A stretch of DNA of 63,660 bases, counting the filler, from Folioceros fuciformis (taxonomy: Eukaryota): assembly GCA_049999805.1 (NCBI GenBank). It is 9 parts of 9 records of this genome, joined end to end, with 100 filler letters (N's around TTAATTAATTAA, not from the genome) between each part and the next. Parts side by side here need not be neighbours in the genome. Positions count along the whole stretch, not along the records: positions 1 to 17,697 come from JBNGIO010005218.1; 8 more parts are not named here. One strand, given 5' to 3'. The notes under the pieces were generated by a model, which searched no databases, was not told the DNA's origin, and saw only the letters and a program-made list of their open reading frames with translations. A program made the position numbers and the translations under genes. The stretch's first letter is position 1. Each line of letters begins with the position of its first letter. Below, piece after piece: positions 6,243 through 42,380 of this stretch.

Positions 6243-8672
6243 TCAGTCTTGCAGCTTCAGCCTGTTGAACAGGATGAGGAAATTTCTCTCTGTAGCCGAG
6301 TAAACAAATCCCAGCTCGGCTCCATTGGTGTGACTACTTTTACCATCAAGGAGAATCAGGTCACCATCTATCCAGTGAGGGTTACGGAACCCTGGTTCCG
6401 CTAACCTGCCCTGACCTTTGAACCGCGCCACCACACCTAGCTCCTCAGGATAGGAAGTTCTATGTGACAATCGGTTTTCTCGACCTGTTTTGGCACGAAA
6501 GGTGACCTGGCCAGCAGGTACATTGAGATCACCTGTTAGCTTCACTGCCTCGACATACTCGAAAAACTCCAGCTTCTCCCCTGTTGGTTGGGCTCCGGCA
6601 TCTTGCCAGCAGCCATATTTCCTCTTCACCTGCACGACCTCTGAAGTGTAGGGACCAAAAGCGCCGATATATAATCCACACAGTGGATCAGAACTTGCCT
6701 CTCTAGTATTTATCCGGGTGAAATTCGTGATTTTCTGTAAGCCGTGTCTTCTCTGAGCTTGACTCACAGCCAGTCTTATCATCTCTCCCATCTCCTTGGA
6801 GACCTTCACAGGTACCTTATCTACGTTCCAAAAGACCTTGGCAACATCGTCGGGCATTAGCCCTGCCGAAGCCCTCGTGGCAACTGCAGCTACCTTCCAC
6901 GACGGTGCAGCCTCCTTAGATGGTGTCTGCGGCAGGCCGGTGTCATCTATATTGAACACAAACGAATCTCTGGACTTGGCTTCAATCGTAGCCGGAACTC
7001 TCACAGGCAGCTTTGGGACCTTGTCGTCACCAGTGTTCTGCATCACTCCCCCGAGTAAAAGTCTGACGGACACCTTCTGTTCCCCATTCCTAGTGACTTC
7101 AGACAGAAAATCACTTGGGATCTTCTCGTCCAGTACTATAGAACCTTCTTCTACATTTCCCACTTTATCACTACCACTGGCATTGGCTTCTTCATTGTCT
7201 TTCTCCTCCTCTTTCTCAGGCTCCATAGTCTGCTCCACGATCTTAGGAATATCCACCCCCTCCGGAGCCACGACCTGGAAGACGTTGAGCTTCAGATCAG
7301 GAATCAGATCAGGGATCCTGCCCTTGAGAAAGTTGATGACCACCTTAAGACCCTCGTTCACGTCTGAACCCTCCGGGTCCCGTTTACCAGTGGACTCGGG
7401 ACCAGCATCCTCGGTCTTTTTGTCACCCTCCCCGTCGAGGACCACGTTCTTCATCTCCACAACATTAACCGCACCGTCCTTCGCAGGCGCCTGCGCCTCC
7501 AAGGCCTGCATGCCTTCCCTCTGCAAGTACACGGCCTGGAGCTCGTACTCACCACTATTACTCTTACTCACGAACACCTCAAACAAGGGAATGCCTGGCG
7601 AGCCGGAGGCCAGCTGCCTCGCCGTGTAGCTCTTAGCCACAAGCCTCCCTTGCATGGGAGCGATGCTAACCAAACGGCCGAAAGGATCGCTCCCTCCGTC
7701 CCCCAAGCCGGACCACCAGCCTACGAGCCCAGCCCCCGCCTTGTCCCGCAACAGCGCCGCATCCCCGTACCTCTCCTCCTGCAAAGCCCTCTCCAACTCC
7801 TTCATCACCTCCGCCACCGCGTCCCCAGCACTGACGCCGGCTATAGTCTGCTTCAGCTTAGCCGCCTCCGCATAGTCCTGCCTCTCCACTGCGTCCTCCA
7901 ACTGAAACTTGAGCGCAGAAGCCAGGCTCTCCCTCTCCTCCACCTCCGCAAACAGCGTCTGCCACCGATCCCACTCCGACACCCCCTTCTCCTCCACCTC
8001 GGGCTCGGGCTCAGGCTCAGGCTCCGGCTCCTTCTCCGGCTCCGGCTCTGCCTCAACGGCGGCCTCCGCCTGCTTCCCCTTCGCCTTCAGCTTGCTCAGC
8101 CGGTGGTTGTCAAGGTAGTCCTGCAGCCTCTTGCTAGCGGTGGTCATCATCTCCCGCAACGGGTCACTCATCTTGGCCGCTGCCGCCTGCATCTTCTTCG
8201 AGGAGCCAGCCAGATCCCAGCCCGCCGCGCTCCCGCCTTCCCCCGCGCCCTCCGAATTGCTCCCCGACGAGGAGACCGCCGCATCTTCTCCCTCCCCGGC
8301 ACTGTCACTCCCAGCAGATCCACGGCACCGGCACACTCCCGCCCTGCTCCTGCTCCCGCTCCTGCTCCACACAGAGCCAGAACCAGAACCAGAGCCGGGC
8401 CACCTGGTAGAAGCGGCATGCAACGCCACACCCTTGCGAGAGCTCACCACGACGGCATTCCGGCCCCGGAAAGGACCAGCCACGGGGACCGCGGCCGCCG
8501 CAGCCATCTTCCTCTGGCTCTCCCGCTCCCTGCTGCGCTCACCTCCAAACCGATGCTGCCACCGGTAACATGAATGCGACTTGTTGCTATCCCCCCTAAG
8601 CGCTCCTACTCCTGCTGCTGCTACTGCTGCTCCTCCTGCTAGCAAGTGGACTGCCATCACCGGTGCAGGCAT
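6243..8672 (-). CDS. EX1: EXECUTER (EX1/EX2) chloroplast singlet-oxygen signalling protein, intronless
   Basis: 809-aa ORF: Ser/Ala/Arg-rich transit-peptide-like N-terminus, UvrB/C-like helices (QLEDAVERQDYAEAAKLK, ERYGDAALLRD), GLVGWWSG, and DUF3506 C-terminus (GLYIGAFG, EYVEAVKLTGDLNVPAGQV, GFRNPHWIDGDL). EX1 vs EX2 orthology is not resolvable by eye. Confidence 0.92.
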   Translation of the reverse strand: MPAPVMAVHLLAGGAAVAAAGVGALRGDSNKSHSCYRWQHRFGGERSRERESQRKMAAAAAVPVAGPFRGRNAVVVSSRKGVALHAASTRWPGSGSGSGSVWSRSGSRSRAGVCRCRGSAGSDSAGEGEDAAVSSSGSNSEGAGEGGSAAGWDLAGSSKKMQAAAAKMSDPLREMMTTASKRLQDYLDNHRLSKLKAKGKQAEAAVEAEPEPEKEPEPEPEPEPEVEEKGVSEWDRWQTLFAEVEERESLASALKFQLEDAVERQDYAEAAKLKQTIAGVSAGDAVAEVMKELERALQEERYGDAALLRDKAGAGLVGWWSGLGDGGSDPFGRLVSIAPMQGRLVAKSYTARQLASGSPGIPLFEVFVSKSNSGEYELQAVYLQREGMQALEAQAPAKDGAVNVVEMKNVVLDGEGDKKTEDAGPESTGKRDPEGSDVNEGLKVVINFLKGRIPDLIPDLKLNVFQVVAPEGVDIPKIVEQTMEPEKEEEKDNEEANASGSDKVGNVEEGSIVLDEKIPSDFLSEVTRNGEQKVSVRLLLGGVMQNTGDDKVPKLPVRVPATIEAKSRDSFVFNIDDTGLPQTPSKEAAPSWKVAAVATRASAGLMPDDVAKVFWNVDKVPVKVSKEMGEMIRLAVSQAQRRHGLQKITNFTRINTREASSDPLCGLYIGAFGPYTSEVVQVKRKYGCWQDAGAQPTGEKLEFFEYVEAVKLTGDLNVPAGQVTFRAKTGRENRLSHRTSYPEELGVVARFKGQGRLAEPGFRNPHWIDGDLILLDGKSSHTNGAELGFVYSATERNFLILFNRLKLQD

Positions 8673-9343
8673 GTCACTCTAACCATGGTACCGCCGCACC
8701 GAGCGTGACGGACCGCACGACTTCCCACTGCGACTGTCTACACCGACTGCATCGACAGCCTCATGCAGCATCCAGGCCGCAGCAGCGCTGTTTGTCGACC
8801 AGGAGGCAAGTGAGAGAGGAAAAAAGTAACCAGCAGTGGCGGATAGGGATCCCAGCTCTTGGTTGTTGCCCTTTCCACCACGATGCTCGGCTGGAGCACC
8901 ACATGGATAATAACCTCATATTTTCACCCACCGTCCTAATATCCAGGATACAATCGCCACTCCAAACTCATGCATCTTATAACGGCCACGTATGTATCTA
9001 TTACATGCATATCTGATGAGAGATACAATCAGTCTCTCTCTAAGTGATTGAGCCCTAAGAGAGAGACAGCCTCCTGTTTTCTCCTCCTTCGCCACAACGG
9101 CAACAACTCCTCGGGATCAGGCAGCTGTCTGGATGTGGATTTTTTCGCCAAGATTCACAACGTGCATGAACAACGCATTTCACGCTCGCCACAACAAAAT
9201 GCGGAATACACTATATTGTGAAGAGAGGATTGCTTGACTGCCAGCTATGTGGAGGCACTCTCTTCCACGGCTACACGCTCAGTCCAGCAAACAGAGCCCC
9301 GGTTTCACTACATCTGGCTAAGACTGGCTGGTTCTAGTTTTCC

Positions 9344-11941
9344 TCATGGTCGACCCTTACAACTGCAAGAACCAGCTGCAAATCGATGCACACGGTACCC
9401 ATCCCTTACGACAATGTCTCTCTGTTCAAGCCTTGACATGATCTCTGTGGAACTGTGGCAGTCACTGCACATGCGTAGGTTCTTCCTCACCACCAGAGGG
9501 GTCCCGCTCGGAGTGTTCAACAGACCAAATGCCAGCGCTAGCTTCTCTGCATGTCCACAAAGTACATCTTCCTTCTCCTTCTCACACATTGGCTTCAGCA
9601 CCAAGTTTGTGTGAGGTACGTGGCCTCCTTCCTGCTTAAGACGTGCATTCGTGCTCTGTACCTTAAGCGCAACGTCCTCTGTCCTTTCTCCAACCAAAAA
9701 TGTATGTACCTGTTTATGTACCTCAATGGTTGCCACTGCAGGTTTCTTCTTGGCTCCTGCTAGCGTTCTCAGTGTTTCAATCCTGTCTACATCGGTCCAC
9801 CTTCCTGCGTCTGCATAGACATTGGCCATGAGCACATAGGCAGGAGATTCCTGGGGGTTCAGCCTGACAATGCTTTCAAAACACCATATCGCCCTCTCTA
9901 CATCCCCGTGACTTTTGCAGGCATTCAGTAAGGACGTCAATGCCACAACATTACTTTCCCCCTCGCATGATAGTAGCACCTTCTCTGCCTCATCCAAATG
10001 ACCTGCACGCCCAAGAAGATCAATCATGCAAACGTAATGCTCTAGAGATGGTTTCATGCCATGCTGGTCAGCCATGGAATGGAAGTGTTTGAGGCCATCG
10101 TGGACAAGTCCCCCATGACTGCATGCTACTAAAACGCAAGTAAAAGTAGCATCATTAGGCTGAACACCGGCAACTAACATCTCCTCAAAACAAGCTAGAG
10201 CTTTGTGACCTTCATCACAAGTACCATACCCGGATATCAGGGCGGTCCATGTCACTACATCCTTCGTGGTCATGCTGTCAAAAACCTGGAGCGCATCTTT
10301 AAGTTGCCCACACTTTGCATACATGTCCACCAGGCAGTTGCCCAGCAGGACGTCATCCAGCAATTTTCGTTCCACAATCTGAGAGTGCAGCTGCCTGCCC
10401 TTCTGCAAGGCGCCAGTGCTTGCACACGCCTTCAAAAGGCAAGCAAAAGTAACAAGGTTACCCAGAATGACACCTTCTTGCTCCATTTGCTCATACACAA
10501 CAATTGCCTTTTGGCCGAGTCCATGCTGAGCATAGCCAGCAATCAGCGCAGTCCATGTCACCACATTCTTTGTGGCCATGCCGTCAAAAACCCGGCGTGC
10601 ATCTTTCAGTTCACCACATTTTGCATACATGTCCACCAGGCAGGTGCCCAAGACTACGTCATCCAGCAGTCCTCGTTCCACAATCTGTGAGTGCAGCTGC
10701 CTGCCCTTTTGCAAGGCATCGGCGCTTGCACAAGCTTTCAGAAGGCAAGAAAATATAAAATCGTCAGCCAGAATGAGGCCCTCCGCCTCCATTTGTTCAT
10801 ACACAACAAGTGCCTCATGTCCGAGCCCTAGCTGGGCATACCCAGCAATCAGGGCGGTCCATGTCACCACATCCTTCTTGACCATGCTGTCAAAAACCTG
10901 GCGTGCATCTTTCATTTCGCCACATTTCGCGTACATGTCCACCAGACAGTTGCTAACGAACAAGTTAGCAGGAATGCCACTGTGCAACACATCACTATGC
11001 ACTTCTCTGCCTGATTCCAAGTCGGAGGCAAATGCACAAGCTTGAAGGGCAGCCACAAAGGCGTGACCATTCGCCTTCACTCCTGACTTATGCATCTCGT
11101 GGTACAGTCGTATGGCCTCCTTAGGTTTCCCATGTTTAGCGTGTGCAGAGATGATGGAACCCCAAGTGATAACATCTGGTGTGCCTATCCTGGTGAACAC
11201 ATCCATGGCCTCCTGCAGCCTACCTCCACATGCATACATGCGCAAGATATGGTTCTGCAAGTATGCATCCGACTCGTACCCAAGTTTGACACTCAGATTA
11301 TGGACTCGACGCCCCACAACCGAATTCTTCTTGGCCGTACACAGTTTCAGCACAGTGCAAAACAAAGAGTGAGAAATAAGATAGTCTGTCTGCGCAAGAG
11401 TTTCTAGGGCCCCAACGGCCTCAGAGAGCCTCCCCTGCTGACATAACATGCTCACAGTTCCAGCTGTAACCATGCCCATTTCCCATCCAGCACTCCTGCC
11501 AGGCTCTGGCTTATCCAAAGAGCTGGAGTTGGAAGGAGAGGCAGCCACATGGCCCATCTGCATATCCAAGGAAACGAGCTGTTCATCAACCCAGGCTGGC
11601 TTAAACATGCTGTTTAACCACAGGACCTCTCCGGACCCCTTACGCCAGAAACCAGGCAATTGGGAGCTCTTCTTTTCTCGTTTGATGTCCCACCACATGG
11701 TCGGGTCCAAAAAAAACTGCTGCCACAGGTAAGTCTGCTTCTGGCAACGACCATCCGAGCACAACCCGTCCACATCCACACATTTTCCGGGAAATGGAAG
11801 CGCGGGGCTCCTTACACTGCTCCACCTAGAAGCCTGGTTTGCCAGACCAAAAATGAGGTGAACGGGAGCTCCCCGTAGAATCCCTGTACAAACACCAACT
11901 TGTTGAGTCCAGAACGGGTCAGGTTGCCATACTGTGGCCAT
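9344..11941 (-). CDS. PLS-class PPR protein with E and DYW:KP ('GRP' terminus) deaminase domain; candidate organellar RNA editing factor
   Basis: 865-aa ORF with repeated P-L-S motifs (LVDMYAKCG...DVVTWTALIAGY), E motifs, KKKPAVATIEV, zinc-binding HAEKLA and CSDCH, ending CSCKGRP*. Confidence 0.95.
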   Translation of the reverse strand: MATVWQPDPFWTQQVGVCTGILRGAPVHLIFGLANQASRWSSVRSPALPFPGKCVDVDGLCSDGRCQKQTYLWQQFFLDPTMWWDIKREKKSSQLPGFWRKGSGEVLWLNSMFKPAWVDEQLVSLDMQMGHVAASPSNSSSLDKPEPGRSAGWEMGMVTAGTVSMLCQQGRLSEAVGALETLAQTDYLISHSLFCTVLKLCTAKKNSVVGRRVHNLSVKLGYESDAYLQNHILRMYACGGRLQEAMDVFTRIGTPDVITWGSIISAHAKHGKPKEAIRLYHEMHKSGVKANGHAFVAALQACAFASDLESGREVHSDVLHSGIPANLFVSNCLVDMYAKCGEMKDARQVFDSMVKKDVVTWTALIAGYAQLGLGHEALVVYEQMEAEGLILADDFIFSCLLKACASADALQKGRQLHSQIVERGLLDDVVLGTCLVDMYAKCGELKDARRVFDGMATKNVVTWTALIAGYAQHGLGQKAIVVYEQMEQEGVILGNLVTFACLLKACASTGALQKGRQLHSQIVERKLLDDVLLGNCLVDMYAKCGQLKDALQVFDSMTTKDVVTWTALISGYGTCDEGHKALACFEEMLVAGVQPNDATFTCVLVACSHGGLVHDGLKHFHSMADQHGMKPSLEHYVCMIDLLGRAGHLDEAEKVLLSCEGESNVVALTSLLNACKSHGDVERAIWCFESIVRLNPQESPAYVLMANVYADAGRWTDVDRIETLRTLAGAKKKPAVATIEVHKQVHTFLVGERTEDVALKVQSTNARLKQEGGHVPHTNLVLKPMCEKEKEDVLCGHAEKLALAFGLLNTPSGTPLVVRKNLRMCSDCHSSTEIMSRLEQRDIVVRDGYRVHRFAAGSCSCKGRP

Positions 11942-12250
11942 CGTTCAAGCACCGCTGTCGGAAGCACCGATGAGTAGTATCGATGAGTCCAACAACAAAC
12001 TACGCATGGCAAGAATCCCAGGTACAGTGTACGACCACACCATGCTGACTGGCTCCGACGACCCGGCAACAGGCGAGCTTGAATGCAAACGGGACCACCT
12101 TGTTTCTCGTCTTCACATTGAAATTAAGGTCCAACGAACTTCGTGCACCCTAACGCCATTGTTGAGGTCGGGATTCAAAGAAGCGAAGGAAACAGTCCGG
12201 AGGTTGATTGACGAGCTTGAGGCCGCCCTGTGTGGAAGTATCTAAGCAAG

Positions 12251-12990
12251 ATGAATGCCCCGGACAGATATGAGCGGTTTGTGGTGCCCGAGGGCATGAA
12301 AAAGTGAGTGTTCGCCAGAAGCTGCTGAATTTGCTTCTCGTTCTGTTGTGTCCCAGACGTGTTGGCCTTGTGTCTGCAGAGTGAACTATGAAAGGGACAT
12401 GAAAATCATGAACGCGGCGACCTTTACTATCCAGAGGGAGGATCACACCATTGGCAACGTTGTTCGCATGTAAGCCCTTACGTGCGTTTCTCCAGTATGC
12501 AGGTCTAGGGTTCGGACGCTGAAGCTGACGTGCTTCTGTGGGGTGCGCAGGCAGTTGCACAGGGACCCTACCGTGTTGTTTGCTGGTTACAAGCTTCCCC
12601 ATCCTTTGCAGTACAAGATTTTAGTGAAGGTGTCGCCCCTGACTCTATGGCTTAGAGTGTTGAAGGGAATTTGGAGCCTCCATGGCGGGTATTGGGGTTG
12701 GTAACCTCAGCTCGCTTTTACTTGCAGATTCAAACAACCAGCCAGTCTTCGCCCATGCAGGCTTACAACCAGGCCGTTAATGACTTGGATAGGGAGCTTG
12801 AGCACCTGAAACGGGGTTTTGAGGTGCGCAGCCTGCTCTGCACTGGCAACTGATCGTGAGACTAGGATACATGTGCTATGCCTGTTGATCGTGATGGATA
12901 GACGATAGATACTTCACCAGTTCGTGTTGCGGTGTGGATCGGGAAAACATGCAGGCCGAGGTTGCCCAGAAGACTACGGATTACTACTGA
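12251..12990 (+). CDS. NRPB11: RNA polymerase II/IV/V subunit 11 (exons 12251-12303, 12380-12469, 12551-12629, 12728-12823, 12955-12990)
   Basis: Spliced product [117 protein letters not shown]; all introns GT-AG. Confidence 0.95.
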
Positions 12991-13539: not shown

Positions 13540-15780
13540 TAGGTGGTAGATAACTACGAGTTCAATATGGAATAATCTACACTATCCTAAGTGTTGTATG
13601 CTCTTAATAGCAATTCAGTTAGAGCTTGATTTCTAACAAAATATTGTCTTGATGTCAAGTTGCATTAATTCATAGTCATGGTGAGATGTTAAAGCTACAA
13701 GAATCCTAAGTGAGGTTATCTTAAGTATATGACTAAAAGTTTCATTATAATCAAATCCGTACTTTTGAGAATATCCCTTTGCCACTAGTCTAGCTTTATA
13801 TCTTTCTATGCTACCATCTGCATTTAACTTAATTTTAAAAGTCCACTTAGAGCCTACTAATTTTCTATTCTTAGGTAGACTAGTTAGGGTCCAAGTCTTA
13901 TTAGCTTGTAGGGATTCTAATTCTAATTTAATTGCCTTTTTCCAGTGTTCCTTTTATGTGCATGTCATGTCTTTGTGATAATTGGCTGGAACAAATTGAT
14001 CTATGGCTGCATGGAGGCAATAGGCTAAAGTGTTCTTAGGGTCCCGCCAATTAGTGGGGGAATATCTATTAATTTTACTTGCATTATGTCTTTGAGGACG
14101 CCTGCCTCTTGTGTCAACGGGGTTGTCTTGTTGTGGAGTGTCCTCAATGTCCTCGTGAAGAGGATCTTCAACAGCTTAAGTATATGTAGGTTGAATGATG
14201 GAGTTAGGATCATTATTTAAATTCAAATACAATTTCCCATTTGCTTTTGGGGTCCTCGGTCGAGGGTGAGAGCCGGGCATCAAGTTGTGTGGCCGAGAGT
14301 CACCCCGTGTGTCTATCTCAAATGCTTGGTAGAAAATACTCGTATCTGCCGGTTCATGATGGCGGTGAGGGCACGCTCCCGAGGATGTGCCGCCGTTGTG
14401 CGGATCTGGATGGCTAATTGGTTGCTAGGTGTGTGCTCCTTGCCGTGTGTAGACGCGTGGGCCTGCTGCTGATGAATGTGTGCCTGCTGAGTGCCCTCCG
14501 TGCTGGAAATGTCGTTGGCTATCCTCATCCTGAAGCGCTTCGGGCCTGCTATTCCCCATGTCGATCGGAGCTGAAGATGCTAGAGGCCGAGGACGCTTCT
14601 ACAAGTGAGGAGGGGAGGAGCTCGTTGTCCATAAAATCGCCAAAGAAGATTGATGGAGTTGCTGCTGCAGGCTGAGGCAGAGGGCCGGGCTTTGGTGCAG
14701 GTGTGGCTGGTGGCACGGGCTGGGCAGGTGGCTGTGGTTGAGCCTGTTGGTGAGGAGCTAGGAGATTGGGTGGTTTGGACTCATCTTCGTCACTATCCTC
14801 AGGCTGTGCAGTGGTGTGGCTGGAGGATTCTCCCACTACAAGGTTGTCGGGCATGTCCTCAAGGAATGTTACATCTCGGGAATAGGTCAGTTTGTGTGTC
14901 TATGGATAGATGAGTTTATAGCCTTTAATGGCGTCAGTGAATCCCACAAATAGGTATTTGCTGGCCCTATCATCCAGCTTTGTTCGAACTGCTTTGGGTG
15001 TGTGTACGTAAACAGGTGAGCCGAAAACTCCGAGGGTAGAGAGATTTGGCCTGTGCCCCATCCAAGCTTCATATGTAGTACCTTGAGGTAGTGCTGTAGT
15101 GAGGGTCCTATTGATAATATACATAGCGTGTCCCATGGCCTCTGGTTAGTAACTTTTGGAAAGCTATGCGTGTATAAGCCTAGACAATCCACAATTCTGA
15201 ACTGTTCGGTTCATTCTCTCCGCCACTCCATTTTGGTGGGAGGTGTGCGGAGTGGTTACTTGACGATTGATCCTGTGTTCCCTACAGAATTGTTGGAATG
15301 GGCTAGAGCCATACTCGCTTCCTCCATCAGATTGTAAGCAAAGGATGGAGTCACCTGTTTGTTTTTCAGCCCATGTCTTGTAGTCTTTAAAGCATGTCAA
15401 TGCTTGGTTTTTTTGTTTGAGGAAATATTTGATAGTGAGCAAGCTCTGTCCTGAAAAAATAGGGGACAGAGCTGCCACAAGGTAGAGTGCAGCATAAAAT
15501 AGGGGTCATAGCCGCCACAAGGCGAAGAGCGGGCTAGTGAGCAAGCTGAGCATATGCCAAAATCTTCAACTCGGGTGAGTGATATGTCGTCAGCTGCTCT
15601 GGTCTTGAGCATGTTTCGCATCCGCTGCAGGTGCATGTGTCCCAATCTAGCGTGCCATAAGAAGGTCTGATTTTGTGAGTGGTTGTTGGTGTCTGCAGCT
15701 AGGGATGATGGTGGTGCCCAGGGTATAGCTACATCTAGATGGTACAAGTTGAAACGTGATGACAAGCAGGCCACTCAAGT
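13540..15780 (-). mobile_element. Degenerate Ty1/copia pol fragment (GAG-pre-integrase, integrase, RT start)
   Basis: LWHARLGH, LQSDGGSEY, HQNGVAERMNRT, RTKLDDRASKYLFVGF, and RT KARLVAKG-like sequence near 13.8 kb; frameshifted. Confidence 0.88.
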
Positions 15781-17797: not shown

Positions 17798-18289
17798 TGA
17801 TCTGAATCATGGTTGTTTTTTTCTGAACGGTGTGGTGTGGATGGTGCGGTCGTGTGGTTGCTTCTGGTGGTGGACGGAGAAAGAGGTGGAGTGTTGGTGC
17901 AATGAGTGCGGGGATGGTGGATGAGGATTGACCTCGTGCCTGGTGTGCAGGTGGTGTGTCGAGGGCCGCGTGAGCGGCGGTGAGTCTGGTGCTTGTCCTG
18001 GGACGCGTAGATCGGGTGTATGAGGCGTCGCCTGGGTTGGATTTGGAAATGAGGAGCGAGTCCTCACAGAAGCAGCCGCAGCTCCAGCCCCAGTCCCAGC
18101 GTGGTTTGGTGGCCAAGTCGGGGGCNNNNNNNNNNNNNNNNNNNNNNNNNNNNNNNNNNNNNNNNNNNNNNNNNNNNNNNNNNNNNNNNNNNNNNNNNNN
18201 NNNNNNNNNNNNNNNNNNNNNNNNNGTCCCTGGCTCGCGCGACTGGAAGCCCCAGCAGTAGTGCTGGGAGCAGTAGCAAGTCGAGCTCG

Positions 18290-19162
18290 ATGGACAAGAA
18301 CGGTGCGAGGATGAGACATCCGACCGGAGGGGAGGACTCATTGATGGCGTCGGGGAAGGACGGATCTGGAAGTGTGTCCCCTTGCCTCGGAGGGAGACCG
18401 GGCATAGGCCGGTTCAGGCTGGATGACACTCCCAAGGCTTCTGGTGGACACGGACTTCTTGCGGCGTCGGAGTTTGGGGGAGAGGATGGTCTGGAGTGTC
18501 CTGTGTGCTGGGAGGCGTTTAATGATCAGGAGAATACTCCCTACGTCCTGTGGTGTGGACATACTCTGTGTAAGACGTGTGTGATGGGCCTTCGTTGGGC
18601 GGTCATCAAGCTCCCGGGCCTCTCTCTGCAGCTGCCTCTTTTCATTCAGTGCCCCTGGTGCCAGTTCCTGACTGCGCGGATGCAATGGAAAGGCTCTCTC
18701 AGGCTTCCCTGCAAGAACTACTTTGTTCTGTGGATAGTCGAGAGCGCCAAGGCAGGGAGTGTGAAGCAAAGACCTCATAGCCCTTCTGCCAATGTTTTCT
18801 CAAACGTGGCATTCACACCTTCCAGTCCAGCGGGGGCCTACTGTCATCATGGCCATCTTGACAACCTGCGACCTAGAAGATTGTTGCAAACTCAGGCACC
18901 TTCAGAGAATATGGAGGGAAGCCTAGATTGGGGATTGTTGCGACAATGGTGTGCCAGAATGGTGATGCTCTTTGTGCAGTTCACTGCCAAATTGCCTCTC
19001 GTTCTTCTGCTTTTGTTCATAGTGTTCTATGTGTTACCGTTTAGCAGTCTCGTGCTTGCCCTCTACTGTGTGATAACGGTAGTTTTTGCCGTTCCATGCT
19101 TCCTTATTGTTTACTTTTCTTATCCTAGTCTCAATTGGCTCGTGAGAGAGATTTTGACATGA
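18290..19162 (+). CDS. C3HC4-type RING E3 ligase with C-terminal transmembrane region (start uncertain; N gap upstream)
   Basis: ECPVCWEAFNDQENTPYVLWCGHTLCKTC...CPWC, LPCKNYFVLW and a hydrophobic C-terminus ending LNWLVREILT. Confidence 0.88.
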   Translation: MDKNGARMRHPTGGEDSLMASGKDGSGSVSPCLGGRPGIGRFRLDDTPKASGGHGLLAASEFGGEDGLECPVCWEAFNDQENTPYVLWCGHTLCKTCVMGLRWAVIKLPGLSLQLPLFIQCPWCQFLTARMQWKGSLRLPCKNYFVLWIVESAKAGSVKQRPHSPSANVFSNVAFTPSSPAGAYCHHGHLDNLRPRRLLQTQAPSENMEGSLDWGLLRQWCARMVMLFVQFTAKLPLVLLLLFIVFYVLPFSSLVLALYCVITVVFAVPCFLIVYFSYPSLNWLVREILT

Positions 19163-22538: not shown

Positions 22539-25248
22539 TCAGACTTTGGAGGAGATGGAGTAAGTGTCGGTGACGTCCACCGGCGGCTTTTTGCTCCTGA
22601 CTGCCTGCATGGCGAAGAAGTCCGATATGACCTCAAGAGGCAAGCCCTTGGTTTCCGGCACTTTGAGGAGGACGAATACCCAGGCGATGACGGTGACGAG
22701 GGCGAAGATGCAGAAGACACCTTCCAGGCCCAGCTCTCGATTGAGCACCGGAAAGGAGTAGGTGACGATGATGTTGCACACCCACATGGCAGCTTGGCAC
22801 ATGCCGATGCACAGCCCCCGCACCCGGGTAGGGAAGATCTCGGAGCACATGATGTTGGGGATGGGCCCGAATCCCATCACGAAGGCGCAGGTGAAAACCG
22901 CCACCCCGGCAAACGAGATGGCTGCCTGCACCAGCCCTGTTGTGAGTATGGAGTTGCTAATCACCACGCAGATCAGCGCCAGCGCCAGGAGCGGCAACGT
23001 TGCCAGCAGTAGCTGCCTGCAATGCGTGCGTGCAAGTAGTTAGCAACAGTTCTCAGATGCGGACGAGACATGTCCTTGGTCGACATTGAAGCTTGGACAC
23101 CCTGCAGCTCTGGGAACCGTGGACTGCAGTTGGAACCACTCAAACGCAAACGCCGTGAATTACCTCCGGCCTGCCCGGTCCATGAGTCGCATAGCCAGCA
23201 CAATGCAGGGGAGCATCAACAAGCAGGTAACACCGCTGGCGAGGATGGATGCCGAGTCGGCCCCGACGCCGATTCGTGCGAGCAGCACCTCGGCACCAGA
23301 TGCCTGCAGGATTTGGGGCGTGAAGTAGAGCACCGCGTTTATGCCGGAGAACTACAGATACGCAGAGGAGAGAGAGCGATGAGATTCACTTCAAGGCAAA
23401 AGAGAGAGAGAGAGGAGAGGAGGTCCGTGGTGAGGTGAATTTAGTAGTACCTGCTGCAGGATCTGCAAGCCGAGGCCGACGAAGAGCGCTCGCCGTACGC
23501 CGGGGACGAGCAGGTCTTGCCAGGAAGGGCCGGACACGGTTTCCAGAGGATGCGCCACGGCGGGGCCGTTGCTGTGCTCGGAGCTGAGGATCTGAGCGGG
23601 CTGGCTCACGAGCGCAGCGGCCTGGTAGGCCTCGACCTCGCCGATGCCGGGGAGGGAGAGCGTGGAGCCGGCATGGGAGCTCATGGCTCGGACGGGCTCA
23701 GACAGGAGGTAGACTCGCTGCAGGCTCCCGCCGTCGCCCAGGTCAGAGCCGGGCTTGGCGTCGGGCGCGGGGGTCCATCGCCAGGCCAGCTGCCACCCAC
23801 TCCCAATGTTGCCCACGCTGCTGAGGGATTCGGGGAGGCTGGTGCCGGGGTTGAAGCCGGATCCGAGATTGGAGACCTGACCCTGGACCGTCCACACCGG
23901 TTGGATATCCGCAGGCGCGTGCCACGTGTGCCCGTGTCGGGAGTCCTTCCTTTGCAGCGGCGATGACGGGAAGAAATTCGCGGAGCTCCGGCGGGAGAGC
24001 GGGCCCGGCAGATCCAGCCTCCCGCTGGACGGTCGGGAGAGGAGGAGCGGCGACTTAAGGTTGTCGTCCCCTCCCTCCCCGGTGACGTTGTCGTCGGAGA
24101 AGTAGCCGATTGCGTTCTGGTTCGGTTCATCGTCCCACTCCTGGATGAAGTGGTCCTGCAGGGAGCCGATGACGGTCACGACGGGATCGATGAGCGGGTG
24201 GCCCTGGCCTGGCTCCATGCTTGCCTTCCGGGACAGGATATGCGGCGGCTCCGGCTCCTCCAGAATCGGGTGGCGAATCCAGGCGAAGGCTTGGGGCTGA
24301 TCCTGGAGGGAGTGGAATGTGGCGGCGCCGGTGTCTTCTCCTGAGGATTCCACGTCTCCAATTATCTCCGGGTGGAGCAGCCATTCCTCCAGCCGACTGC
24401 TCTGCGCCACGCCCAGACCCTCCACCAGCAGGGCCAGCTCCGCGGAAACGTCGTCGGTGCCGCGGAGGTTCTGGAGCACCATCCTCGCCTCCAGCATACG
24501 ACCCTTGGACACCAGCCAGCGGGGAGATTCCGGGAGATAGAAGATCGAGAAGAGGAGGAAGATGAGGGACGGCAGCAGGATGACGGCCAGCATGAACCTC
24601 CAGTTGGGATTGGCCGTGAGGGACACCACGAACACCATGACGTAGGCGACGAAGAGGCCCCCCGACCCCATAAGCTGCGGGAGCGTGGAGAGCTGGCCTC
24701 GGATCTCGGGAGGCGAGGACTCCGCGATGTGGAGGGGGCTGATGGTGGAGGCGAGCCCGATGCTGCACCCGATGAGCACGCGCGCCAGAATGAGCACGTA
24801 CACGTCCGGGGACCAGGCCATGACGCACGCCCCGACGGAGAAGAAGAAGGCGGACACCACCAGCATGCTGCGGCGGCCCAGCCAGTCCGCCGCCGGGCCT
24901 GCACATGTGGTGCTGGTGACGGCCCCGATGAGGGTGGAGGCCACCACCAGGCCCTCCAGGGTGGGATTGTTTTCAAGATTGAATTCCGGCTTGATGAAGA
25001 GCAGCGCCCCTGGCACAACAAGGGCAGTGCACTCCGTTCAAGATTGTTAAAGACTGGCAGGTGAGAAAGGCAATGGAATTGCAGCAAGCAATCAAGCAAG
25101 CAAACGAACGGAACAAACTAGTTCTGGAATGGATTTGAAGAGGAATGAAAAATGGATGCTGACCAGCGATGGCGGCACTGTCCCAGCCTTGGAGTAAGTT
25201 GCCGATGGTGGCGGCAAGCGCCACGGTCCGGGCCCCCTTGGACCTCAT
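22539..25248 (-). CDS. TST: Tonoplast monosaccharide/sugar transporter (TMT/TST family, MFS with large central loop), multi-exon
   Basis: GNLLQGWDSAAIAG, ADWLGRRSML, PESPRWLVSKGR, IGSGWQLAW, LQILQQ, GFGPIPNIMCSEIFPTRVRG, KVPETKGLPLEVI. Confidence 0.93.
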
Positions 25249-40126: not shown

Positions 40127-42380
40127 TGAAGGGTCGCTAGAGGAGCCACATGGTGAAGGGGGAGAGGAGGAAGCAAGGAGGAGAGGAGAAAGAGAGGTCT
40201 CACACTCTCACATAATCTCAATTGCAAGGGAGCTCAAGGGGGTATTTATACCCTTTAGAAGAGCTCCCTAGGAAGCTTCACAAGAAGCTGTGCTAGAAGC
40301 TTCCTACAGATTAGCTTAAGCTAATCTAAACAAATGGTACTTAACTAGACACTAATCTTAGATTAAACACATTAGTCTAATCACATTGGGCTTTAATAAC
40401 CCTACAACTTCCCACTTAAAGGCAATTTACCTTCATAGGAGAGTGGTCTACCTCATGCCCGTGAGTGTTCAAGCTTGTGCAAATTAGATCTGCAAAGTTC
40501 TGATTGGTGTGAACTTTGACAAGTTGTACCCTCTTGTCTTCTAACACCTCTTGAATGAAGTGATACTTCATTTCCACAAGTTTGGTCTTCGCATGAAACA
40601 CTAGATTCTTAGCCAATTGGAAAGCACTCTAGCTATCACAAGGCAACACTGGCAGCCCAACCTTGATTCCCAAGTCTCCCAATAAATGAGCAAGCCACAT
40701 GGCTTCCTTGCAAGCCAGAGTTGCTGCAACATAGTTGGCCTTTGTGGTAGATAGCGTTATGCTTGATTGCAAATGAGATCGCCATGAGACTACCCCTCTA
40801 GTGCACATGAAGACATAACCTGATGTGGACCTCCTTTTGTCCATATCCCCTGCATAATCAGCATCCATATATTCAACAACAGATGCATCTTCACTACCAA
40901 AACATATGCACAAAGCTTTTGTACTATTTAAGTACCTAATAACTCCTTTTACTGCCTCGCAATGCTTCTTGCCAGGGTTTGACACAAACTTGCTAACCAC
41001 TCCCACTGCAAAAGCAATGTCAGGACGTATAGCAATCATTGCATACATCAAACTCCCTACACATGATGAGTATGGAACCTTCTCGATTTCAGCTTTGTCC
41101 TCCGCAAGGCTTGAGCAATCCTTGCTCAAAAGTTGCACATATGGAGGCAACGGAGTACTCAATACCTTCCCCTTCTCCATGTTGAAACTTTGAAGCACCT
41201 TGTTAATGTATGCACTCTGAGACAAGTAAAGCAAATGCTTATGTTTGTCTCGACGAATACGCATGTCAAGAATATGGCTAGCCTCTCCCAAGTTTGTCAT
41301 GTCAAAGCGAACATTCAACTTTGACTTCAACGTTGAAATCTCATCACTGCTATTCCCAACAATTAGTATATCATTCACATAGAGAACCAAAATGAGCAAG
41401 CTTCTTAAACCACCTATCACACCTCTACAGTTGGAGTAGGCTTCTTGTGCATCTTGGTCTCATTGAAGAACATGTCAATGCTACAAACAACCTTCTTGGC
41501 TTCTAGAACCCATAAACGTTATCCCATCTCACGAGAGTTACCATAGCCAAGAAAAATACATTTTTTGGACTTGGGTGCCAACTTGTCCCGAAACTCCTTG
41601 AGAACATGGTAGTATGTCTCACAACTAAACACTTGTAGATGCTTATAAGATGGGTTCTTTCTAGACCACAGGTCCTCTAGAACCTGCTCATCCACAGCCT
41701 TATTAGGAGATCTATTAATAAGATGTACCGTAGGAGACACTGCTTCTGCTCCAAATCCGTTAGGCAATCCAGAGTTTGACAACAAACTACGCATCCTCTC
41801 TTGGATGGTTCTGTTTATCCGTTCAGCCACACCATTCTTGGGAGGAGTATACGGGGCAGTCAATTCTCTCTTGATTCCCTTGGAACCACAAAATGACTGG
41901 AAAGCCTTTGAAACGTACTCTCCACCATTGTCTATCCTTAGACACTTTAGTCAGATGATAGACTGATTCTCCACAAGGGTGACGAATTTTTGAAACACTG
42001 TCAAAACATTGTCCTTTTTCCTCAAAGGATAAACCCACACCTTGCGTGAGAAATCATCTATGAAATTGACAAAATAGGTTGCACCGTCTAATGATATACT
42101 GGGCATAGGTTCACAAATGTCACTGTGAACCAATTCAAGAGGTTTACTTTTGTGTTTACCTCTTGCTCCATGTGGTGATTTTGTTTGTTTCCTAGACAAA
42201 CAATGCTCACACACGGAGAAATCGGAGAAGTCAAAAGCAGGGACGTAACCAAAACGAGATAAGATCTTTATTCCTTTTTGAGACATGTTCTAACCAACAA
42301 TGCCACAAGGAAACGTTTGGCTGTTCCGTTACACAAATCACATGATCGTTGACAGTAGTTACCTGAAGTGAGTACAAAGT
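40127..42380 (-). mobile_element. Tnt1-like Ty1/copia element (integrase, RT, RNase H, 3' LTR at 40127-40406), internally deleted and decayed
   Basis: LELVHSDICEP, FIDDFSRKVWVY, NGVAERINRTI, LVLYVNDILI, DADYAGDMDKRRSTSGY, FHAKTK; LTR tgaagggt...accctaca next to a PPT. Confidence 0.9.

Follow-up and report, generated by a model that had tools for sequence, protein, structure and literature searches.

The 865-aa open reading frame (ORF) on the minus strand at 9344-11941 of the window, by which we mean the whole 63,660-nt stretch of Folioceros fuciformis DNA analysed here (filler included), probably encodes a nuclear PLS-class PPR protein of the DYW:KP type (GRP variant), by homology a candidate organelle U-to-C editor, with an OSB-type PDF domain ahead of its PPR array. 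The reading that we find best, and to which we give somewhat better than even chances, is that this domain is an accessory module that would bind single-stranded nucleic acid on behalf of the editing factor. The features on which the argument rests are as follows.

9344..11941, minus strand: whole ORF, 865 aa plus stop (translation and Pfam; no internal stop)
11762..11941, minus strand: leader, residues 1-60, candidate organelle presequence (predicted disorder, no conservation)
11552..11755, minus strand: PDF-type domain, about residues 63-130 (phmmer, HMM, AlphaFold)
11575-11728, minus strand: PDF core, residues 72-122, the stretch marked by the first-pass annotation
11651..11653, minus strand: codon of G97, where most PDF copies carry D (alignment column 36)
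11495..11551, minus strand: Ser/Pro-rich flexible linker, residues 131-149, leading from the PDF domain to the first PPR helix (pLDDT)
9911..11494, minus strand: PLS-type PPR array, residues 150-677 (Pfam PPR, PPR_1, PPR_2, PPR_3; AlphaFold)
9722..9910, minus strand: E motif, residues 678-740 (Pfam E_motif, 61 bits)
9731-9745, minus strand: KPAVA box, residues 733-737, inside the E motif, in the place of the PG box of PG-type proteins
9347..9721, minus strand: DYW-type deaminase, KP type, GRP variant, residues 741-865 (Pfam DYW_deaminase at 773-863)
9545-9553, minus strand: HAE, residues 797-799 of the deaminase (sequence)
9458-9469, minus strand: CSDC, residues 825-828 of the deaminase (sequence)

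Domain build and predicted fold

The 865-aa ORF scores 242 bits for PPR, 61 bits for E_motif and 109.9 bits for DYW_deaminase in Pfam, and its PPR array, E motif and HxE...CxxC deaminase are those of a PLS-class PPR-DYW protein. We take KPAVA to be a KP-type box. With this box for the PG box, HAE for HSE, and a C-terminal end of CSCKGRP, i.e. GRP instead of DYW, the protein has the features of the DYW:KP GRP variant as these are defined in the accessible part of PMC9478123. No Pfam model matches residues 1-150, and a Pfam search of the whole protein for an SSB domain returned none at E<=10. Since there is no SSB match, and since the 60 residues before the motif are predicted to be disordered, the protein is not an OSB protein.

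The first-pass annotation had likened 51 residues upstream of the PPR tract to the PDF motif of OSB proteins, and in this it was right: they are the exact minus-strand translation of 11575-11728, they share one open frame with the PPR-DYW:KP protein and precede its PPR tract (ORF and Pfam), and the likeness is far above chance. A phmmer search of 1.84 billion representative proteins with residues 1-130 gave 322 matches at E<=1e-3, of which 52 reach E<=1e-10; in every match the best-matching stretch falls within query residues of about 55-130. The matches include a Populus nigra 'protein OSB1, mitochondrial-like' (E 3.3e-19), whose motif at 284-351 follows an SSB-like fold at 74-167, and a Euphorbia peplus 'organellar single-stranded DNA binding protein 3'. 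With an HMM made from 279 copies, the window copy scores 74.5 bits. Judged by its sequence, the stretch of about residues 63-130 is truly homologous to the PDF motif of OSB proteins. It stands alone: tblastn found no second copy within the 63.6-kb window, and the HMM gives one domain only, with no degenerate second copy in residues 1-60. A word-indexed search with residues 58-130 among proteins of 475-1514 aa returned nothing; the other searches show that this reflects the index and not a lack of relatives.

AlphaFold models residues 63-130 as a helix, three short strands and a helix, with a mean pLDDT of 84.5 (82-96 for the domain within a model of residues 1-330). Residues 1-60 have pLDDT values below 50, the linker has values of 49-60 over blocks 131-150 and below 50 at 133-139, and helical repeats begin at residue 150 with values of 87-98. 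The PDF part is thus predicted to fold as a compact, independent domain between a disordered leader and a flexible linker. Structural searches with the domain model gave no usable analogue in the PDB with Foldseek (best E 6.2), and no match at Z of 5 or above among 48,161 chains with VIA-align (best Z 4.4); PDB sequences gave a best E of 0.61, and the ESM Atlas gave only unnamed clusters (best score 0.86). The lack of a structural analogue is not proof of a new fold.

Recurrence of PDF domains in PPR proteins

PPR editing factors are usually pictured as a transit peptide followed by a PPR array, an E motif and a DYW domain. The first-pass annotation likewise held that PLS-DYW factors normally have nothing but a transit peptide at this place, and implied that the fusion is rare. 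The first statement holds for the gymnosperm homologues, none of the 22 examined having a PDF, but not for seedless plants: an N-terminal PDF is present in 32 of the 120 best PPR homologues, which also runs against the implied rarity. Among these 120, the counts are 25 of 34 for Diphasiastrum, 2 of 3 for Calypogeia, 1 of 2 for Ceratodon and 1 of 13 for Adiantum. PDF and PPR occur together in 14 of the 150 best motif matches and in 54 of the 120 best matches of a profile made from PPR-linked PDF copies; in 53 of those 54 proteins, all PDFs are N-terminal of the PPR tract. Many proteins predicted for a lycophyte (Diphasiastrum), ferns, mosses and a liverwort have one to three copies ahead of the tract, and among the matches listed such fusions come from seedless plants only. 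A build of leader, one to three PDFs, PPR array and E/DYW region therefore recurs in many seedless land plants.

Two relatives, P0200 (57% identical) and P0072, both ending in GRP, are collinear with the window protein all the way from the PDF motif to the DYW domain, with conservation in the motif about equal to that in the PPR body (identity, P0200). Upstream of about residue 50-68 there is no homology to either relative. A special link between the PDF and KP-type proteins, the enrichment that was to be checked, did not emerge: a PDF is found in 1 of 8 KP-type, 13 of 41 PG-type and 15 of 56 DYW-less proteins, in a sample picked by similarity to the window protein and typed by crude regular expressions. 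Since PG-type and DYW-less proteins carry it too, the PDF is not specific to DYW:KP proteins, and since there are close KP-type relatives without it, such as P0214, the KP enzyme in itself can do without the module. In a FastTree tree of 58 columns, the PPR-linked copies cluster (10 label changes, against 49.2 in shuffles), although this clustering is inflated by near-copies and truncated fragments are mislabelled as non-PPR; the starred branches force at least 2 label changes.

The PDF motif, reportedly defined by Zaegel and colleagues in 2006, has to our knowledge been tied so far only to the control of organelle DNA recombination, and its fusion to PPR proteins would widen its known roles. 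Among the papers and excerpts consulted, none links PDF motifs with PPR proteins, though a mention may exist elsewhere. A 2026 kingdom-wide survey of editing-factor domain fusions leaves the PDF module unmentioned. Pfam, on which such surveys draw, lacks a PDF model, and the module is therefore invisible to them.

Possible roles and alternative readings

PPR arrays lie parallel to the RNA, with their N-terminal repeats toward the 5' side, so the PDF domain would sit 5' of the PPR footprint. We envisage that the mature protein begins with a single PDF domain of the OSB type, which a flexible linker of about 20 residues connects to the PPR array, and that this domain would serve as an accessory, sequence-unspecific binder of single-stranded nucleic acid. 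It might grip the RNA on the upstream side of the recognised site, or it might hold the factor on the single-stranded DNA of a transcribing nucleoid; in both cases, targets that match weakly would be bound with higher local affinity. The nucleoid tether or non-specific single-strand binding that the first-pass annotation had proposed would follow by analogy from published work on AtOSB1/2. In the portion of PMC6963530 available, the AtOSB1 PDF motif alone suffices for ssDNA binding. The RNA-clamp version is disfavoured by the preference of AtOSB1/2 for ssDNA over dsDNA or RNA, given in an excerpt of PMC4166229. A further point against the accessory-binder reading is that moss PPR56, which may or may not have a PDF, edits in E. 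coli when its N-terminus is missing (PMC10482289, in the part accessible).

The strongest alternative, though we regard it as unlikely, is that the module is vestigial: inherited from a PDF-PPR ancestor, it would still be translated and folded but would have lost its binding, and would now do no more than keep the presequence and the PPR array apart. The case for this comes from the departures of the window copy from consensus in an alignment of 381 motif copies (52 PPR-linked and 329 others). At column 36, the D of P-D-F is present in 98% of the PPR-linked and 97% of the other copies, and the window copy is alone among the PPR-linked ones in having G; the change from PDF to PGF described in the first-pass annotation is real (G97, 11651-11653), so that the window protein has P96-G97-F98 and not the Pro-Asp-Phe signature. 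K87 (column 26) stands where R is 98-99% conserved, I replaces N at position 86, and KH is replaced by WR at columns 38-39. Because G97 and K87 replace a conserved D and R, nucleic-acid binding may be weaker or absent. At 74.5 bits, the HMM score also lies at the low end of the PPR-linked copies, which mostly score 75-90, and related KP-type proteins do without the domain altogether. Against a relic stand the intact frame, the high AlphaFold confidence for the domain, an identity to P0200 about equal to that of the PPR body, and the near-invariant positions that are retained, namely W73, F77, P80, W83, W84, D85, K90, P96, F98, K101, L107, W108, P115, W117 and V118.

It is very improbable that the motif lies outside the protein, as a relic in the 5' UTR of an mRNA translated from a downstream Met. 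The candidates are M127 (at the end of the PDF domain), M129 (assigned to the linker) and M155/M157 (in the first PPR helix); the predicted start of a relative, P0220, falls at the equivalent of M155-M157, and the leader is only weakly transit-peptide-like by composition (net charge +1 over 40 residues). Contigs of run X1 (Logan), which we count in favour of the main reading, match 11435-11581 and 11612-12303 exactly; they carry no information on strand, ends or level of expression, and the one that spans 11612-12303 may stem from the divergent neighbour. The run contains RNA, since there are spliced GT..AG joints in the neighbouring gene. Against a downstream start, a start at M155 would leave no presequence before the first PPR helix of an organelle protein, the frame is open for 154 codons upstream of M155, and the motif is conserved in collinear relatives with predicted starts upstream of it. 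M1 is the first AUG of the frame, with A at -3 and G at +4, and codon usage over residues 1-130 is slightly best in frame 0, a small difference given without a significance test. An in-frame TGA (11945-11947) directly precedes M1 and a divergent RNA-polymerase-subunit gene starts about 240 bp upstream, leaving no room for an alternative upstream exon. We infer a translation start at M1 and a leader that is cleaved as a presequence.

Equally improbable in our estimation is a protein-protein module that might pair editing factors with each other or recruit nucleoid proteins, OSB proteins among them: non-PPR proteins among the phmmer matches have 1-13 tandem copies of the motif and PPR proteins have 1-3, as is often the case for adaptor repeats, AtOSB2 is reported to be tetrameric and no solved nucleic-acid-binding fold resembles the model (Foldseek, VIA-align), but the AtOSB1 motif binds ssDNA by itself, and the conserved positions, with Trp, Phe, Lys and Arg, are of the kind that stack on bases and contact phosphates (AtOSB1 and AtOSB2 data from the available portion of PMC6963530).

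If the PDF domain does bind single-stranded nucleic acid, it would be a part of the editing machinery that has so far gone unnoticed in lycophytes, ferns and bryophytes, and also in U-to-C editors that are now engineered as RNA base editors, where it could influence affinity, off-target range or the coupling of editing to transcription. A bolder proposal, which we consider improbable, is that PDF-PPR is the ancestral editing-factor build of land plants. In that case, the PDF would be a cis binder doing part of the job of MORF-type trans helpers, either stabilising weak PPR-RNA pairing 5' of the footprint or tethering editing to the ssDNA of transcribing nucleoids, and PPR proteins would have shed it as seed plants gained MORF. 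Such an ancestral cis-helper would help to explain how hyper-editing seedless plants without MORFs edit hundreds to thousands of sites.

Comparison with known systems

The window protein shares with OSB proteins, at profile level, a motif of about 60 residues, with OSB1 and OSB3 among the matches and the core W..FF..P..WWD..K....P.F..K....LW.....P.WV in common, and both are presumably encoded by nuclear genes for organelle proteins. In contrast to OSB proteins, it has no SSB-like OB fold, its motif precedes a PPR array rather than lying C-terminal of the OB fold, and it has a single copy with G for the D of P-D-F. Maize PPR4 resembles it in having an accessory nucleic-acid-binding domain N-terminal of the PPR tract (PMC9459714, in the part accessible). 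This is an analogy of build only: PPR4 combines an RRM with a P-type array and acts in trans-splicing, whereas the window protein combines a PDF with a PLS-DYW build associated with editing.

The MORF/RIP helpers offer a possible functional analogy only, as non-specific aids to PLS-PPR editing factors; they have no sequence or fold relation to the PDF, and MORF acts in trans. MORF genes are reported in seed plants only, according to an excerpt of PMC13386178. The complementary distribution of MORF and PDF-PPR proteins is drawn from small samples (0 of 22 gymnosperm homologues) among the matches listed.

With the PPR-DYW:KP GRP-variant proteins of hornworts, lycophytes and ferns, themselves candidate U-to-C editors, the window protein shares the PLS array, the E motif, KPAVA, HAE...CSDC and the terminal GRP. 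Synthetic KP editors have been made without any natural N-terminus (PMC9478123, in the part accessible), and the descriptions of DYW:KP proteins consulted give a targeting sequence alone before the PPR tract, whereas the window protein, P0200 and P0072 carry a PDF there.

Domain architecture of the window protein and its likeness to OSB proteins

The window protein is read from a single frame, with an in-frame TGA (11945-11947) immediately 5' of the first ATG; other genes and retroelement fragments also lie in the window.

Features of the window, with parts of the window protein given in residues
3312-4682, plus strand: MGAT2 gene, a long single frame (303 bits)
6243-8678, minus strand: gene with a Cyclin_D1_bind domain, a long single frame
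9344-11941, minus strand: window protein ORF, stop-free, 865 codons; PPR repeats (PF01535, 242 bits, and related Pfam models)
Residues 678-740: E motif (Pfam)
Residues 773-863: DYW_deaminase (Pfam, 109.9 bits)
12184-12800, plus strand: divergent neighbour gene, head-to-head with the PPR gene and ~240 bp from its ATG; exon borders at 12304, 12381-12469, 12551-12627 and 12726 onward; the exon 12381-12469 weakly matches an Rpb3/Rpb11 dimerisation domain (21.6 bits, below the Pfam cut-off of 27)
13633-13953, 14900-15478 and 40629-41459, all minus strand: Ty1/copia-type retroelement fragments broken into short frames, with RVT_2 (82 and 55 bits) and integrase core (25 bits, below cut-off) domains
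18053-19162, plus strand: RING-finger protein gene, a long single frame
23391-25037, minus strand: N-terminal half of a sugar transporter, a long single frame

Gene spacing is dense and intron-poor, and the introns of the neighbour gene are ~76-98 nt long. At its C-terminal end the window protein has KPAVA at residues 733-737, in the place of the PG box of PG-type proteins, followed by HAE (797-799), CSDC (825-828) and a terminal GRP. In an excerpt of PMC9478123, HAE is the active-site reading of KP proteins, and DRH and GRP are two variants of hornwort KP proteins. Taken together, these four features indicate that the window protein fits the GRP variant of DYW:KP.

The PDF motif is said to have been defined in a paper of 2006 by Zaegel. 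The first-pass annotation had seen such a motif at 11575-11728; its minus-strand translation was reproduced exactly and corresponds to residues 72-122, within a region (residues 1-150) that has no Pfam match even at E<=10. Residues 1-130 were searched with phmmer against 1.84 billion representative proteins. There were 322 matches at E<=1e-3, of which 52 reached E<=1e-10 and 4 reached E<=1e-30. Without exception the best-matching part of the query fell in residues ~55-130, and many matched proteins have 2-13 copies. By cluster look-up, the matches include P0020, 'protein OSB1, mitochondrial-like' of Populus nigra (E 3.3e-19), and P0027, 'organellar single-stranded DNA binding protein 3' of Euphorbia peplus. 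Seven of the 10 top non-PPR matches scanned have a Pfam SSB match at E<0.01 (three pass the curated cut-off), with the PDF match C-terminal of the SSB-like part in each of the seven. The consensus of an HMM made from 279 copies of the motif closely resembles the OSB motif given in the annotation, and the window copy scores 74.5 bits against this HMM. A second profile (A2), built from 20 PPR-linked copies and biased towards Diphasiastrum, matched 686 proteins at E<=1e-5, including many angiosperm proteins named OSB1, OSB2 or OSB3 and green-algal proteins of Sanguina and Ulva. The phmmer matches, the named OSB proteins and the HMM score bear out the proposed likeness and establish homology to the OSB PDF motif. 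Some non-PPR proteins (P0009, P0003 and P0029) have 9-13 tandem PDF copies and no other recognised domain, more than the one to three copies of classical OSB proteins; in Kingdonia uniflora, for example, there are 13 PDF stretches in a 1160-aa protein.

AlphaFold2, given residues 59-135 and an alignment of 61 rows, predicted two helices with three short strands between them (mean pLDDT 84.5, pTM 0.69). In a model of residues 1-330, residues 1-60 have pLDDT <50, residues 63-130 are folded (block means 82-96), residues 133-149 form a low-confidence linker, and PPR helices begin at residue 150. We found no solved structure resembling the predicted domain with Foldseek (best E 6.2), with VIA-align against 48,161 chains (best Z 4.4) or among PDB sequences (best E 0.61).

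Translation start and state of the window copy

A start downstream of the motif would leave the window protein without a presequence, which we counted in favour of M1, the first AUG of the frame (A at -3, G at +4). The start of the divergent gene leaves no space for an upstream exon of the PPR gene. Two close relatives with GRP ends, P0200 (950 aa, 57% identical) and P0072 (753 aa), run collinear with the window protein over the whole span between the PDF motif and the C-terminus, and conservation of the motif in these proteins was counted for its inclusion in the mature protein; their leaders ahead of the motif cannot be aligned with one another or with that of the window protein, as expected of presequences. 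Codon usage is slightly best in frame 0, a small difference without a significance test. Contigs from sequencing run X1, which carry no strand or end information, match exactly over 11435-11581, 11612-12303 and 8987-9368, and that over 11612-12303 may instead belong to the neighbour gene, whose GT..AG joints (12469>12551 and 12627>12726) occur in contigs of four runs and whose X1 depth pattern across introns fits spliced RNA. Translation likely starts at M1, which would place the PDF motif within the mature protein. Within the motif, 14-15 contigs of X1, a run that matches the window exactly elsewhere, have another base at 11582 and 11594, as do 29-66 contigs from runs of three other coded organisms, which suggests a large family with many expressed motif-bearing paralogues.

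Among 381 aligned copies, 98% of those linked to PPR and 97% of the others have the Asp of P-D-F. The window copy has G97 at this position, the sole Gly among 52 PPR-linked copies, and K87 at the WWDNR Arg, which is conserved in 98-99% of the 381; it also departs from the consensus by N86I and KH-to-WR. Most remaining near-invariant positions are retained, and P0200 keeps a canonical PDFRHK. The Asp-to-Gly change may weaken the window copy.

PDF-PPR proteins across plants

Nine of 10 long motif matches scanned with Pfam are PPR proteins with the motif near the N-terminus, two of them with a complete DYW domain (P0072, ending GGRP, and P0109, a Sphagnum compactum protein with a terminal DYW); in the tenth, P0041, the copy is internal and Pfam finds SSB instead of PPR. 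Fourteen of the 150 best motif matches combine one to three PDFs with a following PPR tract, with examples in Adiantum capillus-veneris, Ceratopteris richardii and Sphagnum. Among the best 120 full-length homologues of the window protein, the PDF HMM (domain E<1e-5) found an N-terminal PDF in 32: Diphasiastrum complanatum (25/34), Calypogeia fissa (2/3), Ceratodon purpureus (1/2), Adiantum (1/13) and unnamed sources (3/37), with none in Ceratopteris (0/8), Physcomitrium (0/1), Cryptomeria (0/15) or Ginkgo (0/7). Truncated gene models may account for some of these absences. PPR proteins make up 54 of the best 120 A2 matches (53 Diphasiastrum, one Adiantum), and in 53 of these the PPR tract follows all PDFs; the remaining one has the look of two gene models run together. 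Three tandem copies precede the PPR array in P0206, P0189 and P0004 (Diphasiastrum; one Logan contig), and in many Diphasiastrum proteins the full copy comes ~20 residues after a partial one (HMM positions 42-64). In a FastTree tree built from 352 copies of the motif, based on 58 columns that resolve little, PPR-linked copies cluster (10 label changes versus 49.2 in shuffles).

By a crude motif classification of the 120 homologues, PDFs occur on 13/41 PG-type, 1/8 KP-type, 15/56 DYW-less and 3/15 ambiguous proteins, the window protein being an additional KP-type carrier. The module is therefore not KP-specific, and enrichment on KP-type over PG-type proteins, which the annotation proposed to test, is not seen in this sample. 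Other KP-type relatives, such as P0214, pass directly from leader to PPR array without a PDF, and thus the module is optional within the KP clade. The predicted start of P0220 falls at the position of window M155-157. Overall, the original observation is confirmed, and its interpretation is supported in part: for OSB homology, though not for rarity or a link to KP.

Proposed role and comparison with known systems

According to review literature, the PDF motif of AtOSB1 is sufficient for ssDNA binding (PMC6963530), and AtOSB1/2 prefer ssDNA over dsDNA or RNA (PMC4166229). We propose that a tethered PDF domain would add sequence-unspecific single-strand binding on the 5' side of the PPR footprint, with either RNA or nucleoid ssDNA as the ligand. 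MORF helpers are reported, in an excerpt of PMC13386178, in seed plants only; this range is the complement of the plants in which we saw PDF-PPR proteins, a distribution that is suggestive only. A full-text literature search, with supplements outside its reach, turned up nothing that connects the PDF motif with PPR proteins, including in the one review where both terms occur, and the terms OSB, PDF and single-stranded are all absent from a survey published in 2026 of domain fusions in editing factors. PDF-PPR is a widespread build and apparently an undescribed one, and the window protein is a PPR editing factor carrying an extra, previously known domain.
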